DNA of 64,000 nt. It comes from Nitrospirota bacterium (GTDB lineage Bacteria > Nitrospirota > UBA9217). The translations under genes were made by a program, and so were the position numbers. Positions within the stretch are counted from its first letter, which is position 1. The number at the start of each line of letters is the position of its first letter. The DNA is taken from assembly GCA_963840455.1 (NCBI GenBank), contig CAWIYV010000014.1, positions 416,001-480,000 of the forward strand, written 5' to 3'. Under the pieces are notes generated by a model that worked only from the letters and a program-made list of their open reading frames with translations, did not search any database and was not told the origin of the DNA. Below, one piece after another: positions 12,451 to 57,268 of the stretch.

Positions 12451-13497
12451 TCAGAACCAGCGGCTGAAGAGGACGGTAATTGTTGTCTGCTGTGACGTGA
12501 TCTTGTCGTTGATGCCGGTGTAAACGAGCCCTGATCCATCATAGAATGTCTGGGTCTGGGTCCCCGTCGTGTCGATCTTGAGGTACTGTCCCCCGACCTG
12601 AAGACAGTCGTTGTCCTGAATGTTCCATTGCATGGTGGCCGTTGCAAGGTACGCTTTTCCCGTGGTGCTTGCTTTCGACACCTTTTGCCTCAGGATATGG
12701 TCGTCCCTATCGTCAGCCCAGGCCCAGGGACTGTATCCGAGGTCAATGATCGTCTGGAACTGATGCCCGAGCTGAATTTGCGAATGGACGCCCAGATACG
12801 GTATGGCGTAGGTCACTTCGTAGGTCAATACCTTTCCCGGAACGGTCACTGTATACCATGGCGAATAGGGACCGTATCCCACTTGCTGCACGTTGCTCGC
12901 GTCAAATTGGAATTTCTGATAGAGGAACCCACCGGAAGGCCCCACGCTCAGGGTGCCTGAGATCCAGTTGTTGTACGACCCCCGGATATCGATGATGTTC
13001 GCTTTTAACGATATGTCGGACTCGGAATAGATATCCTTGCCGGGATGGGGATATCCCGAGTTGGGAGGATTCGGCGGTGACGGCGGGGCCTGGATATCGT
13101 AGTTGTTCGTGAGCCAATCCGAGTCCTTGAGTTTGCCCGAACCATGATCGATGCTCGTCAGCCACTGCAGTGTTATCTTGACCTTATCCCGCCCCTTCGG
13201 GTCCTTGCTGAGATACCCGCCCTGGATACTGAACAGAAATGTCTTGAGCGGGAACTCAAGCTCGCTTTCGATCCCTTGCCCCGTCGTGTCATAACTGCTG
13301 ATATGATAGAGCGTGTTCCCGTTCAGATAACCGATCCCGAGACCGAACGTAATGTCGTTCGAACTCTGCTGTACCGGCTGGGCGGCCTGTACTGTCACGG
13401 ATGACGAGAGGAACAGGCATATTGCCGCCATAATAACGGGGATGCAGACGCGATACAAGGCCATGTATCTTCGATGCTGTCCGGATTTTCTTGGCAT
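12451..13497 (-). CDS. Omptin-family outer-membrane beta-barrel protease (start may be 13464)
   Basis: Signal peptide; ESELEFP, GKLKDSDW and DDRDDHILR resemble omptin catalytic segments; terminal aromatic residue (RWF). Confidence 0.65.
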   Translation of the reverse strand: MPRKSGQHRRYMALYRVCIPVIMAAICLFLSSSVTVQAAQPVQQSSNDITFGLGIGYLNGNTLYHISSYDTTGQGIESELEFPLKTFLFSIQGGYLSKDPKGRDKVKITLQWLTSIDHGSGKLKDSDWLTNNYDIQAPPSPPNPPNSGYPHPGKDIYSESDISLKANIIDIRGSYNNWISGTLSVGPSGGFLYQKFQFDASNVQQVGYGPYSPWYTVTVPGKVLTYEVTYAIPYLGVHSQIQLGHQFQTIIDLGYSPWAWADDRDDHILRQKVSKASTTGKAYLATATMQWNIQDNDCLQVGGQYLKIDTTGTQTQTFYDGSGLVYTGINDKITSQQTTITVLFSRWF

Positions 13498-16482: not shown

Positions 16483-18390
16483 ATGGCCATCGGCACGCTC
16501 TGGAAATTTTTCGGCAACCGCCGCGGGATGATCATCCTTCTCATCCAGCTCGCCCTCCTGCTTACCTTCCTTCATTATTTTAGCGGCTATCAATCGAGCG
16601 ATAGATGTGCAGCCTGCCACGCGGACAAGGAGCGCATGACGAAACTGGGCTATCCTCAGTTCGTGATGACGCGCGAGCAGGTCCAGAAGGAATCGCGCCA
16701 CCCGAACACCGAATGCCGCGACTGTCACCTGGGCAACGGCCTCTCCGACGACCCTGACAAAGCGCACAAGGGGATGCTGAAGCTCATTGTGCTGGACAAT
16801 GACCTGAACGTCATGCCGCGGAAAGGGCATGTCACGCGGCTCCTCCCGTCAGGCAGCGACCGCCAGCGGAACATGCTGCCCCGCCTGGCTGACGGCGAGC
16901 TCGATTACGACGTGGGTACGCTCATGTGGCACGACCGAGATCCTGTCACCCTCGGCTACGACCCGAAGATCGCAGAGAGGACCTGCGGCAAGGCTGCCTG
17001 CCATCCCGACCAGGTGAAGCAGTTCTCCACGAGCAACATGGGATCGAACTTCCGGCAGCGGTCCATGCGGACGTGGAACGACATCCACGGCCCGAACAAT
17101 TGAGGCCCCTCCTTTGCGGACACCCTGCCGGTCGGCAGGGCGGAAGGCGACAAGTTCTCCTTCGATAACACCAGCAAGATCATGGAAGAGATCAACTACC
17201 CGCTGTCGCGTGAGCAGGCGGTGGCAAAGCAGAAGGCCTGCAACATCTGCCACACCGGCTGCCTCGACTGCCACTACACGCCGACAAAGGAGCGGGGCTC
17301 CCATGCCATGAGCCGCATCCCCCCTGCGCTGAACTGCACCGGGAACGGCAGGAGCACCTTCGTCTGCCATGCGGGCACCATGGAGCGCAGGCGCGGCGAC
17401 AGCTATCTGGGCAATGACTTCTCCGAGCCGGCCGGGCTTCCCGAGGACGTGCACGTGAAGCAAAAGATGGAATGCGTTGACTGCCACCAGACCGGACCGG
17501 GCGGTATGGGCCACATCGAACGTCGCGCCACCTGCCAGGATTGCCATCCCGAGGTCGAACAGGCCATGGCGCGGAGCATGCACAGGAACGTGGCCTGCGA
17601 GTCCTGCCACGTGAAGATCCTCGGCGGCTACGAGATGACCTCCTGGGGACCGGGCATGGTGCTGTCCCGGCCGAACCCCTTCAAGAAGTATTCATTATAT
17701 TACGGCCCCCAGGCGCCACCGATCCTCATCAAGGACCAGAAGGGCATCTGGATCCCGACCAAGATCTGGCCGAACAGTATGGGCGGCTTCAAAAATAGGG
17801 TCCAGCCGAAACCGGGCCTCGTGTTCCGGTGGCCTGACGGCCAGACGCGGGACGCCTACGCCCAGCTCGGGACCTTCAGCGTTCCCGGCGGGAACAACAA
17901 CTACCTCGCCTGGATCCAGGTGGAGCAGGTGGCCCATCCGCTCGGGAAATCCCGCACCTGCGGGAGCTGCCACGACGGCGCGGCGCAGACCGCGAAGGTG
18001 GCGTGGAGGTTCTTCGACACTCAGGGCGCGGAGCCTTTCACGGGCAGCCAGAAGGTGGTGGCGGACAGGAACGGGCTCCAGGTAAAGGACATCAAGGCCA
18101 CGTCGTCGATCACGCTCATGGAAGGCGGAAAGATCGAGAACTTCGCGGCATGGATGAAGCTCGGTGATATCTGGAAAACGAGCGGGGATTTCTCGATCCC
18201 CAAGTCGGATCCCGTGAAGTATCGGAAGCTGGAGGCCGGCATCCGCGATGCCATGAGGAAGCTCGATGCGGAGGACCGCGAGCTCAAGCGTCGCGAGGCG
18301 AATGGCGATGATATGAAGAAGCTGCGGCGCAGGTGGAAAGAGGCGAAGGCTGCTGCGGTGCATGAGGCCGGTCAGGTGGTGTTCCCGTGA
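16483..18390 (+). CDS. Membrane-anchored multiheme cytochrome c, probable selenoprotein (UGA at 17101-17103 read as Sec; 635 aa)
   Basis: ORFs 16483-17103 and 17182-18390 share a frame, separated only by TGA (HGPNN-U-GPSFAD); 8 CxxCH plus CX4CH and CX9CH motifs; SECIS-like hairpin follows the TGA. Confidence 0.85.
17104..17147 (+). promoter_or_regulatory. Bacterial SECIS element
   Basis: Stem ccctgcc(17123-29)/ggcaggg(17134-40), apical loop GGTC starting 26 nt after UGA, lower stem cctttgcg/cggaagg. Confidence 0.8.
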
Positions 18391-21147: not shown

Positions 21148-23775
21148 ATGACGACTTTCGTTCAACGGATCATTGTACTATCAGCCTTTGTTCTCGGTTC
21201 CAGTCTGTTCGCCCCGGAGTCGCACGCGAGGGGAGGCGGCGGCTGTGTCGAGCAGGGCACCCATGTCCTCACGCCTTCCGGTCCTGTCCCGATCGAGCGG
21301 TTGAAGACCGGCGATACCGTGCTCGGCGTGGACCGGCAGATGCTCCGTCCCGTTACCGTCCGGTCGCTCATGCAGGTCCGGACGGAAGAATATGTTGAAC
21401 TCTCTGTGAACGGCCGCTTTCTGCGGCTCACCGCTGAACATCCCGTCGAAACAGCTCCGGGTGTCTTTCGGAACGCATCCCGTCTCAGGCAGGGTGATAA
21501 GGTCATCCTCCACGAGGACGGACTCATTGCCGATGCGGCAATAGTATCCATCAGACGCATTCAAAACAGCAAGCCCGCATACAACCTGCTTGTTTCGCCT
21601 GCCGGAACCTACTTGGCAAATACCATCGTGGTCCACAACAAGGGATGCTTCCTTCCCGACACACCGGTCCGGACGGCCGACGGTTCGGAAGTGCCGATCT
21701 CCGGGGTCCGGCAGGGCGACCGGCTGCTCGCGTTCACCGCTGATGGACATGTCGTCGCAGCAACGGTCCGTCAGGTGCTCACCCACGCTGCCGATGAATA
21801 CCGCATCGTACGGACCAGCAGCATGGTCCTGCAGGTCACACCGGAGCATCCTTTCTATGTCGGCGATGGAACATTCAAGACGCTCGAAGCCCTGCAGCCC
21901 GGCGACAGGATCTTTGCCTATGACGGGAGCGGTCTTAATCCTCAACGGATCGAGAGCATCGAGGCCGTGCGCGCTCCGGTCCGTGTCTATAACCTTATGA
22001 CCGACGCACCGCATACCTTCTTTGCGAATGGAATCGCAGTGCATAATAAAGGAGGAGGTGGCGGCTGTTTCCCGCCGGGGACAGAGGTCCTGACACCGCG
22101 AGGCGAGGTCCCGATCGAACATATTGCACCAGGCGAAACGGTCATCACGGTAGATGAGAATGGGCAACAGGTCCCCTCGATGGCGCTGTCAACGCATGCT
22201 GCCCGATCCCGGCTGCTGGTCATACGAACAACGCAGGGCGACCTGACGACGACCTCCGAGCATCCGCTGGCACTTGCGTCAGGAGGATTCCTGCAGGCGG
22301 GCCGGCTGGTCCCGGGCGATGCCGTGCTCGCGTGGAAGGACGGGTATACGAAGGCGCAGGTAACCGGCGTTGAACCGCTCGACGCCGATGCACTGGTATA
22401 TAATCTCACCGTGGACGGTCCGCACACGTTCATCGCCGGAGGGTTCGTCGTCCATAACAAGGGAGGGGGCGGTGGTGGATTCCGCAGCAGCGGCGGACGG
22501 TCCTCCTCGGGCGGCGGGTCCGGCACGGAGGGCGAGGGGCCGTTCATTGCGATGATCGTCCTCGGTGCGGTCATCATCGTCATCATTGCCGTCCGGAAGG
22601 AGAGGTCTGACAACCTTGACCAACTATTCAACAGGGGGGACATCGAGAAGAAGAGCGAAAAGACGGAGAAGCTTCTCGCGTTCATCGCGCAGCAGGACTC
22701 GACCGTCTCGCCCGACGTTCTCAAAAAAACCGTGGAAACCACCTTCCGAAAACTCCAGGAGTGCTGGCAGGCCCGGGAGTACGAGCCCATGAAGCCTCTC
22801 CTGATGCCAGACCTCTATGCCGACCATCTTGGCCAGATCCGCGGCATGGCGCGAAACCACGAGATCAATGTAATCTCCGGCCTGCAGGTCGACGCGGTCG
22901 ACCTGGTGAACGTCAGGTATACGCTCAAAGAGGAGGACCGGGAGTTCACGGCGCTCATCACGGCCACGGCGACGGACTTCTACATCGATGATCGTACGAA
23001 TGAGCGGATTCGCGGCGACCAGGGGGCCGCGCCGTTCCAGGAGTTCTGGACCTTCCAGTATCACCAGGACAAATGGCTCCTGCGGGAGATCGAACAGACC
23101 GCCGAGTCCGACATCCTGAATGACGACAACTTCTTCGAACAGTTCACCGACAAAGGCGTGGAGCAGGTCGAGGGCGCTGCGGCAAAGAAGGAGGGGCCGG
23201 AAGGCCCGTGGCTCGAAGGGGCGGTCATGACCAAGGAGCGCCGCGTCGAGCGGATGCTCAATTTCCTCGTAAAGACCGACAGCATCTGGGACCGGAAGAA
23301 GATGATGCTCACGGGCCGGAGCGTCTTCCTTGCAGTGACCGGGGCGTGGGAGGCAGGCGACCCGAGAGCGGTCCCCGCAGCAGACCTGTTCCCGGAGCTC
23401 GCCCGGGACCTTCACGATGCAATCAGGAAGAACCGGGACAAAGGCATCAGCCTCGAGTTCCGGAATCTTGCTGTTCGGAAGGTGGAACTGGTCCTGGTCA
23501 GGAACTTCGCCGACAACACCCAGGACGAATATATGGCGCGCATCCGTGCCCATGCCCAGAAGATCATGAAAGTGGCGGGCAACGTCGTCCGGCAGGACGA
23601 TGACGTGACGGCCTTCGAACAGTTCCTGACCTTCGGAAGGCTCGACAGCAGATGGAAGCTGAAGGAGGTTGTCCTGCCGCACGAGGCGGAGGGCGTGGTG
23701 GAGCAGGAGAATGTCGATCAGGAAGCATCGAAGCAGCAGGTCGAGTGGTACTACCAGCACACGCGGGCGGTGTGA
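21148..23775 (+). CDS. Exported protein: signal peptide + three tandem Hint (intein-like/BIL) domains + Gly/Ser linker + TM + Tim44-like domains
   Basis: SHA|RGGGG; Hints 21244-21639, 21646-22047, 22066-22458 each C...TxEHP...YNL...VHN; TM FIAMIVLGAVIIVIIAV; FQEFWTF...WLLREIEQ and FEQFLTF...WKLKEV Tim44-like ends. Confidence 0.85.
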   Translation: MTTFVQRIIVLSAFVLGSSLFAPESHARGGGGCVEQGTHVLTPSGPVPIERLKTGDTVLGVDRQMLRPVTVRSLMQVRTEEYVELSVNGRFLRLTAEHPVETAPGVFRNASRLRQGDKVILHEDGLIADAAIVSIRRIQNSKPAYNLLVSPAGTYLANTIVVHNKGCFLPDTPVRTADGSEVPISGVRQGDRLLAFTADGHVVAATVRQVLTHAADEYRIVRTSSMVLQVTPEHPFYVGDGTFKTLEALQPGDRIFAYDGSGLNPQRIESIEAVRAPVRVYNLMTDAPHTFFANGIAVHNKGGGGGCFPPGTEVLTPRGEVPIEHIAPGETVITVDENGQQVPSMALSTHAARSRLLVIRTTQGDLTTTSEHPLALASGGFLQAGRLVPGDAVLAWKDGYTKAQVTGVEPLDADALVYNLTVDGPHTFIAGGFVVHNKGGGGGGFRSSGGRSSSGGGSGTEGEGPFIAMIVLGAVIIVIIAVRKERSDNLDQLFNRGDIEKKSEKTEKLLAFIAQQDSTVSPDVLKKTVETTFRKLQECWQAREYEPMKPLLMPDLYADHLGQIRGMARNHEINVISGLQVDAVDLVNVRYTLKEEDREFTALITATATDFYIDDRTNERIRGDQGAAPFQEFWTFQYHQDKWLLREIEQTAESDILNDDNFFEQFTDKGVEQVEGAAAKKEGPEGPWLEGAVMTKERRVERMLNFLVKTDSIWDRKKMMLTGRSVFLAVTGAWEAGDPRAVPAADLFPELARDLHDAIRKNRDKGISLEFRNLAVRKVELVLVRNFADNTQDEYMARIRAHAQKIMKVAGNVVRQDDDVTAFEQFLTFGRLDSRWKLKEVVLPHEAEGVVEQENVDQEASKQQVEWYYQHTRAV

Positions 23776-39129: not shown

Positions 39130-40329
39130 ATGGCAAAAGCGAAATTTGAGAGAACGAAGCCGCATGTGAACGTGGGGACCATCGGCCACGTTGACCACGG
39201 CAAGACGACGCTGACGGCTGCGATCACGAAGGTGCTGGCGTTCAAGAACATGGCCAGCTTCGTGTCGTACGACAACATCGACAAGGCGCCCGAGGAACGG
39301 GAGCGCGGCATCACGATCGCGACGGCGCACGTGGAGTACCAGACCGAGAAGCGCCACTACGCCCATGTGGACTGCCCGGGCCATGCCGATTACATCAAGA
39401 ACATGATCACCGGCGCGGCGCAGATGGACGGAGCGATCCTGGTGGTCTCGGCCGCTGACGGCCCCATGCCCCAGACGCGCGAGCACATCCTTTTGGCCCG
39501 CCAGGTTGGCGTGCCCTATATCGTCGTGTACATGAACAAGGTCGACATGGTCGACGATCCCGAGCTCCTGGAGCTGGTCGAACTTGAGGTCCGCGAGCTC
39601 CTGTCCAAGTACCAGTTCCCCGGCGACAAGACCCCGATCATCAAAGGCAGCGCCCTGAAGGCGCTCCAGAGCGAGAGCAAGGACATCAATGCGCCCGAGT
39701 ACAAGAGCATCCTTGAACTCATGGACGCCCTGGACAGCTACATTCCCCAGCCCAAGCGCGATATCGACAAGCCCTACCTGATGCCGATCGAGGACGTGTT
39801 CTCCATCGCCGGCCGCGGCACCGTGGTGACGGGCCGCATCGAGCGGGGCATCGTGAAAGTGGGCGACGAGATCGAGATCGTGGGCATCAAGCCCACGCAG
39901 AAGACCGTGGTCACCGGTGTTGAGATGTTCCGGAAGCTCCTGGATTCGGGCGAGGCCGGCGACAATGTCGGCGTCCTGCTCCGGGGCGTGAAGAAGGAAG
40001 AAGTGGAGCGCGGCATGGTCCTGGCCAAGCCCGGGAGCATCACCCCGCACACGAAGTTCAAGGCCGAGGCCTACGTTCTGACGAAGGAAGAGGGCGGCCG
40101 CCACACCCCGTTCTTCAAGGGATACCGTCCGCAGTTCTACTTCCGGACGACGGACGTGACGGGCGTGGTGACGCTGGCCGAAGGCGTCGAGATGGTGATG
40201 CCGGGCGACAACATGAGCTGCAGCGTTGAGCTCATCACCCCCATCGCCATGGACAAGGAGCTCCGGTTCGCCATCCGCGAGGGCGGCCGCACCGTGGGCG
40301 CCGGCGTGATCACCGAAGTGATCGAGTAA
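39130..40329 (+). CDS. tuf: Elongation factor Tu (copy 1)
   Basis: [21 protein letters not shown]; follows the Thr-Tyr-Gly-Thr tRNAs. Confidence 0.99.
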
Positions 40330-55735: not shown

Positions 55736-56935
55736 ATGGCAAAAGCGAAATTTGAGAGAACGAAGCCGCATGTGAACGTGGGGACCATCGGCCACGTTGA
55801 CCACGGCAAGACGACGCTGACGGCTGCGATCACGAAGGTGCTGGCGTTCAAGAACATGGCCAGCTTCGTGTCGTACGACAACATCGACAAGGCGCCCGAG
55901 GAACGGGAGCGCGGCATCACGATCGCGACGGCGCACGTGGAGTACCAGACCGAGAAGCGCCACTACGCCCATGTGGACTGCCCGGGCCATGCCGATTACA
56001 TCAAGAACATGATCACCGGCGCGGCGCAGATGGACGGAGCGATCCTGGTGGTCTCGGCCGCTGACGGCCCCATGCCCCAGACGCGCGAGCACATCCTTTT
56101 GGCCCGCCAGGTTGGCGTGCCCTATATCGTCGTGTACATGAACAAGGTCGACATGGTCGACGATCCCGAGCTCCTGGAGCTGGTCGAACTTGAGGTCCGC
56201 GAGCTCCTGTCCAAGTACCAGTTCCCCGGCGACAAGACCCCGATCATCAAAGGCAGCGCCCTGAAGGCGCTCCAGAGCGAGAGCAAGGACATCAATGCGC
56301 CCGAGTACAAGAGCATCCTTGAACTCATGGACGCCCTGGACAGCTACATTCCCCAGCCCAAGCGCGACATCGACAAGCCCTACCTGATGCCCATCGAGGA
56401 CGTGTTCTCCATCGCCGGCCGCGGCACCGTGGTGACGGGCCGCATCGAGCGGGGCATCGTGAAAGTGGGCGACGAGATCGAGATCGTGGGCATTAAGCCC
56501 ACGCAGAAGACCGTGGTCACCGGTGTTGAGATGTTCCGGAAGCTCCTGGATTCGGGCGAGGCCGGCGACAATGTCGGCGTCCTGCTCCGGGGCGTGAAGA
56601 AGGAAGAAGTGGAGCGCGGCATGGTCCTGGCCAAGCCCGGGAGCATCACCCCGCACACGAAGTTCAAGGCCGAGGCCTACGTTCTGACGAAGGAAGAGGG
56701 CGGCCGCCACACCCCGTTCTTCAAGGGATACCGTCCGCAGTTCTACTTCCGGACGACGGACGTGACGGGCGTGGTGACGCTGGCCGAAGGCGTCGAGATG
56801 GTGATGCCGGGCGACAACATGAGCTGCAGCGTTGAGCTCATCACCCCCATCGCCATGGACAAGGAGCTCCGGTTCGCCATCCGCGAGGGCGGCCGCACCG
56901 TGGGCGCCGGCGTGATCACCGAAGTGATCGAGTAA
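55736..56935 (+). CDS. tuf: Elongation factor Tu (copy 2)
   Basis: Protein identical to 39130-40329. Confidence 0.99.
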
Positions 56936-56962
56936 GCAAGAAACGAGAGGAAGGGCGACTCA

Positions 56963-57268
56963 GTGACGCAGAAGATCAGGATACGGCTTAAAGGATATGA
57001 CCATCGTCTGCTGGACCAGTCGGTGGTGGAGATCATGGACACGGCAAAGCGGACCGGCGCCAAAGTATCGGGCCCCATTCCGTTGCCGACCCGGATCAAC
57101 CGCTGGACGGTGCTCCGTTCGCCCCATGTGGACAAGAAATCACGGGAACAGTTCGAGATCAGGACGCACAAGCGGCTCCTCGATATCCTGGACCCGACAC
57201 CGCAGACCGTGGATGCGCTGATGAAGCTCGACCTCGCTGCAGGTGTTGACGTGGAGATCAAGCTCTAA
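56963..57268 (+). CDS. rpsJ: 30S ribosomal protein S10
   Basis: [21 protein letters not shown]. Confidence 0.98.

Follow-up and report, generated by a model that had tools for sequence, protein, structure and literature searches.

Our analysis of a 64,000-nucleotide stretch of a Nitrospirota bacterium (assembly GCA_963840455.1, contig CAWIYV010000014.1, positions 416,001 to 480,000; hereafter the window) points to a gene for a ten-heme cytochrome c that would carry one selenocysteine (Sec) and is distantly related to the octaheme tetrathionate reductase (Otr) of Shewanella oneidensis. The best explanation as a whole, to which we assign a probability of about 0.75, is a Sec-decoded, membrane-anchored, ten-heme, Otr-like enzyme with Sec207 as a nucleophile in its pocket. 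The comparative evidence supports the core of the original prediction, made from the letters of this DNA, that one multiheme cytochrome c gene with a Sec-encoding UGA and a selenocysteine insertion sequence (SECIS) would be mis-split here by annotation pipelines.

The observation behind that prediction, namely one frame with an internal TGA and a hairpin, is confirmed. A single frame on the forward strand runs from the ATG at 16483 to the TGA at 18388-18390, and its sole internal stop is the TGA at 17101-17103 (DIHGPNN-U-GPSFAD). The open reading frame (ORF) listing splits this frame into 16483..17103 (206 aa) and 17182..18390 (402 aa), and the 26 codons between the internal TGA and the next ATG (17104-17181) are open, exactly as had been described. 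The read-through product has 635 residues with Sec at codon 207 and, again reproducing the earlier description, eight CxxCH motifs and two atypical ones, CX4CH (CGKAACH, residues 168-174) and CX9CH (CTGNGRSTFVCH, residues 285-296). All ten heme motifs are unchanged across 29 near and far family members. Pfam returned PF14522 at 33.2 bits against a cut-off of 24.8, which is only a generic cytochrome c7/c3 signal. The membrane anchor that had been proposed was recovered as an AlphaFold helix at residues 13-37, which supplies the export signal expected of a multiheme cytochrome c and is presumed to be a signal anchor that places the heme domain in the periplasm. The features of the gene are the following.

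16483..18390 (+): whole gene, 635-codon read-through ORF, matched over its entire length by Cys homologs (47-76% identical)
16519..16593 (+): N-terminal hydrophobic helix, residues 13-37, seen in the AlphaFold model and the hydrophobic sequence, of presumed topology
16606..16728 (+): heme motif 1 (CAACH, 16606-16620) and heme motif 2 (CRDCH, 16714-16728), outside the Otr-aligned residues 162-577
16966..18213 (+): Otr-like octaheme core, residues 162-577, from VIA-align, Foldseek and hhalign against 1sp3/Otr
16984-17004 (+): heme motif 3 (CX4CH)
17101..17103 (+): in-frame UGA, putatively read as selenocysteine U207, aligned with the invariant Cys of the homologs
17104..17181 (+): 26 probably coding codons between the UGA and the gene callers' ATG, holding the candidate SECIS
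17123..17140 (+): candidate SECIS hairpin, with stem 17123-17129, loop GGUC 17130-17133 and stem 17134-17140
17239-17253 (+): heme motif 4 (CNICH)
17260-17274 (+): heme motif 5
17335-17370 (+): heme motif 6 (CX9CH)
17473-17487 (+): heme motif 7
17533-17547 (+): heme motif 8
17596-17610 (+): heme motif 9
17959-17973 (+): heme motif 10

Homologs with Cys at the UGA position, which the original prediction had proposed as a check, were found in abundance. Among 5.8 billion proteins searched there were 640 matches, 120 of which were listed and provide the figures given here. Cys occupies the site in 80/80 full-length homologs, within an invariant block (H/Y)GP(N/H)N-C-GPSFAD. Another 39 of the listed matches are only 380-435 aa long at 72-99% identity, with starts scattered 3' of the Sec site; by their sequences, these short database proteins are evidently truncated gene calls, in line with the expectation that pipelines would split the gene. 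The Cys is also found in 20/20 sequences of a first alignment (A1) and in 91/91 rows of a larger one (A3), and it is kept by distant database members of the family. Position 207 holds the only invariant Cys (or Sec) outside the heme motifs in 29/29 near and far members, which bears out the claim that Sec lies outside the heme-attachment motifs.

With regard to the codon itself, 54 of the 64 genomes of the order to which ours belongs have an ortholog or family match. In the 50 whose ortholog match spans residue 207, exactly one in-frame TGA was present in 47 and none in 3; the position of the codon was checked in 30 fetched loci, with TGA in 29 and TGT in one. These 30 loci and 80 named contigs of metagenome-assembled genomes make a set of 110, in which the site codon is TGA in 63, TGC in 30 and TGT in 17, and which collapses to 84 distinct 120-nt stretches (38 TGA and 46 Cys). 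Residues +1 to +7 (GPSFADT) are invariant in the 38 TGA orthologs, and all but the Thr at +7, whose codon never changes, are written with two to four different codons, a pattern that marks the codons downstream of the TGA as apparently under protein-level selection. The codon is also covered in three metagenome runs, taken from as many other studies, in which no difference is listed, and a metagenome contig (X4, 16785-17139) bridges it. As a separate observation, genomes of the order including G022, G021, G026 and G038 carry stop-free paralogs of 35-44% identity beside the Sec ortholog.

The hairpin, CCCUGCC-GGUC-GGCAGGG, has the 7-bp stem and the GGUC loop that had been reported, while its placement had to be corrected: the stem, said to start 26 nt downstream, begins 19 nt after the TGA, and it is the loop that begins 26 nt after it. 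A GGUC-loop hairpin at the same offset occurs in 38/38 distinct TGA stretches and in 0/46 Cys stretches; as the pattern was derived from the TGA sequences themselves, the informative parts are its absence from the Cys forms and the codon data. The mean minimum free energy is -12.0 kcal/mol for TGA stretches compared with -5.8 kcal/mol for Cys stretches. In the 38 TGA stretches, codons +7, +9, +10 and +12 never vary at their third position, whereas adjacent invariant residues use two to four codons, and with these frozen synonymous sites the proposal of a SECIS 3' of the UGA has held up. Stem pairing is preserved in 91.5% of cells over 37 distinct sequences; sliding the partner lowers this to 21-51%. 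Both sides have changed in two pairs (U-A in L043; G-C and G-U in L030; A-U in L087), and the observed covariation score was reached by 1/500 shuffles, although this covariation is thin, comprising only three cells, because the sequences are close relatives. In the nearest Cys ortholog (L022/L044), loop and stem are both gone, and the peptide encoded by the hairpin (PVGRA) varies among the Cys relatives. The element resembles the E. coli fdhF-type SECIS in its location immediately 3' of the UGA and in its G-rich apical loop. It differs in that no Rfam model matches (a search of 17000-17300 at a permissive threshold returned no SECIS family and chance-level matches only) and in that stem position 4 is usually mismatched (22/37 sequences). 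Its loop begins 29 nt from the U of the UGA; the background to this comparison is the fdhF loop sequence and a bacterial SECIS window of 16-37 nt.

The machinery for Sec insertion, whose absence would have spoken against the prediction, is present in the genome: selA and selB adjoin each other, selD has its own in-frame TGA (CGU), and ARAGORN predicts two tRNA-Sec genes (C1:311722-311820 and C9:389438-389532). Judged on this comparative evidence, the TGA at 17101-17103 is very probably decoded as selenocysteine. Termination at the UGA would instead leave a 206-aa triheme cytochrome anchored in the membrane and, as a second protein, a 402-aa product with seven hemes. Gene callers annotate the locus in this way, as the 39 C-terminal pieces among the 120 listed homologs show, and Sec insertion is rarely complete, so that some truncated product is likely. 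Nevertheless, the 26 codons after the TGA appear to be selected as protein, the called C-terminal ORFs start at many different, non-homologous points, the C-terminal piece would lack a signal for export, and the Cys homologs are single chains; two separate genes would also leave the hairpin and the frozen synonymous sites unexplained. An assembly error, which the original prediction had named as a possible objection, or a pseudogene has the presence of the stop codon in its favour, whereas the same TGA recurs in 38 distinct orthologs, in separate assemblies and in the contigs of three other studies, and the remaining frame is intact and conserved. Owing to the Cys alignment, the hairpin, the machinery and the independent samples, we consider two separate genes very unlikely, and an error or pseudogene more improbable still, to the point of being in effect refuted.

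A crude whole-genome scan for UGA codons with GGUC hairpins gave 54 candidates, most of them noise and a few plausible. Outside the window, in-frame TGAs with a downstream hairpin lie in plausible selenoprotein contexts at three further sites: C8:80735 (EHGG-U-GNG), C10:75603 (IGGY-U-PGT, with a strong GGUC hairpin) and C14:49646 (PT-U-GCT); the labels C_GCAxxG-like, YedE-like and DUF1573-like, respectively, are guesses from the motifs. In the window, EF-Tu-like GTPases match the selB model at 55772-56977 (+) (C14:471772-472977) and 39166-40068 (+), the former containing one TAA, which may be a gene end or mark a tuf duplicate.

The relationship to Otr emerged from structural models. An AlphaFold model built from a 91-sequence alignment (mean predicted local distance difference test, pLDDT, 90.1; predicted template modelling score 0.88) matched Otr (1sp3) in Foldseek with E 3.4e-4 and probability 0.92, the only match at E <= 0.001. 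VIA-align gave 1sp3_A a Z of 9.5 and a root-mean-square deviation of 4.4 Å over 251 residues, with model residues 162-577 on chain residues 17-434, the only hit with Z >= 8. A first model (21 sequences, pLDDT 66) had returned nothing in Foldseek and VIA-align, or only a C-terminal helix pair. Eight true Otr orthologs were gathered from related genomes (one of them, L136, matches 1sp3 at E 1.6e-175), and hhalign against these gave a probability of 97.0% (E 9.5e-11, 267 columns) for the protein and 97.7% for distant members of its family. The alignment puts heme motifs 3-10 onto Otr hemes 1-8. In it, CX4CH corresponds to Otr heme 1 with two extra residues and CX9CH to Otr heme 4, enlarged by seven residues (GxGRGT); this speaks for heme binding at both unusual motifs.

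With the Otr model TIGR04315 (family criterion at least 375 bits), the protein had no match at E <= 1 and the locus none at E <= 10; NCBIfam gave nothing above 17 bits for the protein, PDB sequence searches gave only heme-motif-level matches, and a protein cluster look-up with a natural Cys homolog (P0004) gave only 'cytochrome c family' clusters. The fold and profile matches place the protein as a remote Otr homolog on a separate, deeply diverged branch. The two share the fold over the whole Otr chain, eight heme sites in matching order and, in the stretch linking core hemes 1 and 2, an invariant Cys, whose place is taken by Sec in part of the Otr family. The ten-heme protein differs from Otr by its added N-terminal membrane helix, two more hemes and a C-terminal helical hairpin, by CX4CH at core heme 1 and CX9CH at core heme 4 where Otr has plain CxxCH, by having no conserved counterpart of the ligand Lys56, and by a loop that has 14 residues fewer ahead of the Cys and 36 more behind it. 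Other multiheme cytochromes show weaker echoes, whose matches span few heme motifs and imply no family-level relation: the octaheme sulfite reductase MccA (4rkm) at a Foldseek E of 0.09, and profiles of NrfA (E 4e-7) and NrfH (E 6e-4) at residues 298-378. MccA has a heme motif with a long inter-cysteine insert (CX15CH). As to the NapC/NirT/NrfH quinol dehydrogenases, the NrfH match lies at residues 328-377 and not at the N-terminus, and only the layout of an anchor followed by hemes is NrfH-like.

In the numbering of 1sp3, heme 1 spans C22-H26 and heme 2 C74-H78, with K56 and C64 between them (GKKNSINNFC). Cys64 reportedly lines the catalytic pocket of Otr. In Otr, the lysine ligand and the Cys64 of the pocket around the catalytic heme 2 both come from this loop. 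In our protein, U207 follows Asn-Asn and occupies the equivalent loop, from core heme 1 to core heme 2. Within the Otr family, 28/67 above-cut-off TIGR04315 matches, from 401 genomes of another phylum, carry one TGA, and in all five such loci that were read (L147, L149, L150, L155 and L156) the TGA falls at Otr Cys64 (NNF-U or NSF-U) and is followed by a hairpin with a G-containing loop. The table of a 2026 review lists the Otr family as a GenBank-annotated selenoprotein. By this sequence comparison, Sec207 probably lies in the catalytic heme pocket, and it seems reasonably likely to be a free nucleophile equivalent to Cys64.

Several results weigh against our reading. The hairpin by itself is unexceptional, an 81-nt fold that includes it having z = -0.69 with 42/200 shuffles folding as well, so the case for Sec rests on comparison; the origin of the hairpin pattern, the thin covariation, the mismatched stem position and the Rfam result described above count on the same side. 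One RNA run (X20) gave two 151-nt contigs confined to 16718-16998, too little to claim expression. With regard to the pocket, hhalign in global, local and sub-region mode put U207 off register with Otr Cys64, with GPxNC nearer to Lys56, and the spacing from W to Cys is 9 residues here compared with 23 (to Cys64) or 15 (to Lys56) in Otr. The AlphaFold models are heme-free, the physiological substrate of Otr is itself debated, and the neighbours of the gene in 81 loci are housekeeping genes in partial synteny (radA, a TRIC channel, DAHP synthase), which give no pointer to substrate or partner.

The register found by hhalign raises the prospect that Sec207 itself ligates the catalytic heme axially, in place of Otr Lys56, which would make a selenolate-ligated heme c. 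The catalytic heme of Otr is described as having a lysine as proximal ligand although it is CxxCH-attached (PMC13562315), and hhalign sets GPxNC opposite the PGKGK/Lys56 region of Otr and not opposite NNFC. The family has no conserved Lys ahead of the site, and the universally conserved residues outside the motifs that could serve ten hemes as distal ligands number only five His and one Met, two further positions being partly conserved. His/Cys-ligated catalytic hemes are, moreover, described for MccSep and TsdA. On the other side, the alignment in the U207 loop is gapped and of low confidence, and in true Otr genes Sec replaces Cys64, which is not the ligand. We know of no natural Sec-ligated heme, which also counts against this role. 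In MccSep, Sec is the free residue and Cys the ligand. Sec207 is thus unlikely to be a heme ligand, and ligation at the position of the Otr Lys is doubtful to the same degree; if it were true, it would be the first natural selenolate-ligated heme. Slightly less likely again is a combined version, in which Sec207 would be the ligand at the Otr Lys position, electrons would come from the quinol pool and the protein would form a core single-gene respiratory module of subsurface Nitrospirota.

Membership of the MccSep/ExtKL family of polysulfide reductases is the remaining alternative. ExtKL (GSU2937-2936), which the original prediction had cited as precedent, has been characterised as MccSep, a polysulfide reductase with five hemes that forms a soluble tetramer (Mihara et al., Sci Adv 2026, PMC13510729). 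Like the ten-heme protein, it is a multiheme cytochrome c of the periplasm in which a single site holds Sec or Cys and the UGA is followed at once by a hairpin. The two genes are alike split by annotation and occur in the same genome and lineage, and weak NCBIfam matches of the ten-heme protein point to the Ext-operon cytochromes ExtN and ExtO, at 17 bits against a cut-off of 200. Nevertheless, the protein has no match at E <= 1 to NF040886 (family criterion at least 250 bits), whereas the genome's own MccSep/ExtKL at C4:2263-3576 (L124:2263-3576) scores 571 bits, with five CxxCH motifs and an in-frame TGA in HAIPDG-U-PTPNR; the organism would therefore carry two unrelated Sec multiheme cytochromes. 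BLASTP aligned only heme-motif fragments and hhalign gave a probability of 7.8%, on which grounds membership was rejected. The sequences are unrelated, with ten hemes here and five in the soluble MccSep tetramer. Sec lies in the heme domain here, whereas Sec325 of MccSep is described as part of an HxIPDGUP motif, on an Ig-like domain at the C-terminus and adjacent to a heme with a Cys ligand (PMC13510729). The evolutionary direction also differs: the 35 Sec forms here appear as a derived clade inside Cys forms, whereas MccSep Cys forms are reported to have arisen within Sec clades (PMC13510729). The ExtKL precedent consequently holds as an analogy between Sec-containing multiheme cytochromes and fails as a statement of kinship, which lies with Otr instead; a divergent MccSep/ExtKL member is extremely improbable.

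Returning to the reading of Sec207 as a pocket nucleophile, the following mechanism can be proposed, in which the insertion of Sec, its role in the pocket, the membrane topology, the electron donor and the substrate are inferences. As the ribosome nears, the GGUC-loop hairpin 19 nt past the UGA would recruit SelB with Sec-tRNA(Sec), and translation would carry on through the UGA to give one 635-residue protein. This protein would be anchored in the cytoplasmic membrane by its N-terminal helix, with ten covalent hemes facing the periplasm. Sec207 would be a redox-active nucleophile in the pocket, beside the motif-4 heme (CNICH), and would attack a chalcogen-chalcogen or oxyanion substrate, for example tetrathionate, polysulfide or selenite. 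The Sec adduct might then be reduced by electrons travelling along the heme chain, which would enter, perhaps out of the quinol pool, by the two additional hemes near the membrane.

The direction of the Cys/Sec exchange was examined in a FastTree phylogeny (LG+gamma) of 79 distinct sequences and five distant outgroups, from which duplicates and sequences shorter than 560 aa were dropped. All 35 Sec forms fall in a single clade (Shimodaira-Hasegawa-like support 0.94). Together with two Cys forms it makes up a larger clade (0.997), which is sister to the Thermodesulfovibrionales-type Cys forms. As the Sec clade is nested within Cys forms, Sec is, on this tree, best read as derived from Cys in the ten-heme family. 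The named relatives are all uncultured Nitrospirota. The assembly of one locus (L072) is assigned to class UBA9217 in the MccSep data file (PMC13510729), which makes it probable that our genome falls in UBA9217 as well. In the literature this class is described as anaerobic, aquifer-dwelling and rich in dsrAB; dsrA is present in our genome. radA lies upstream in 24/81 loci (17 Sec, 7 Cys) and a TRIC-type channel downstream in 18 Sec loci, and no redox partner or dedicated heme lyase was seen in the neighbourhoods of the 81 loci, which fits a self-contained, membrane-anchored enzyme.

Biochemical proof of Sec in multiheme cytochromes dates from 2026 (MccSep, PMC13510729), and the 2026 review already lists such proteins, with entries for the Otr and GSU2204 families. 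The ten-heme family is covered neither by NCBIfam models nor by that review's table, and no published description of a ten-heme Sec family was found in our literature searches; the main texts of deep-Sep and BSepDB do not contain the word 'cytochrome', although their supplements could list the family. We regard as new the proposal that this family includes selenoproteins, the connection to the Otr fold, the ten-heme anchored architecture and the origin of Sec from Cys. The gene would add a second, unrelated Sec multiheme cytochrome to the same organism, and ties to the Otr fold a family that occurs in 54/64 genomes of the order and whose Cys forms extend across Thermodesulfovibrionales-type genomes. 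The swap of Cys for Sec marks residue 207 as chemically important and as a target for mutagenesis, which may offer a route to what Otr-type enzymes actually do. A derived Sec clade within Cys forms also represents a natural experiment on the replacement of Cys by Sec. As annotation truncates these genes (the short calls noted above), heme counts and metabolic reconstructions for aquifer Nitrospirota would be wrong at this point.

Two further observations concern other genes of the window. An 875-aa ORF at 21148-23775 (+) has PT-HINT/Hint_2/Intein_splicing domains followed by Tim44-like domains, an unusual combination. An omptin-family outer-membrane protease homolog (PF01278, E 3.6e-15) is found at 12451-13497 (-), adjoining genes that resemble those for type II secretion or pilus assembly.

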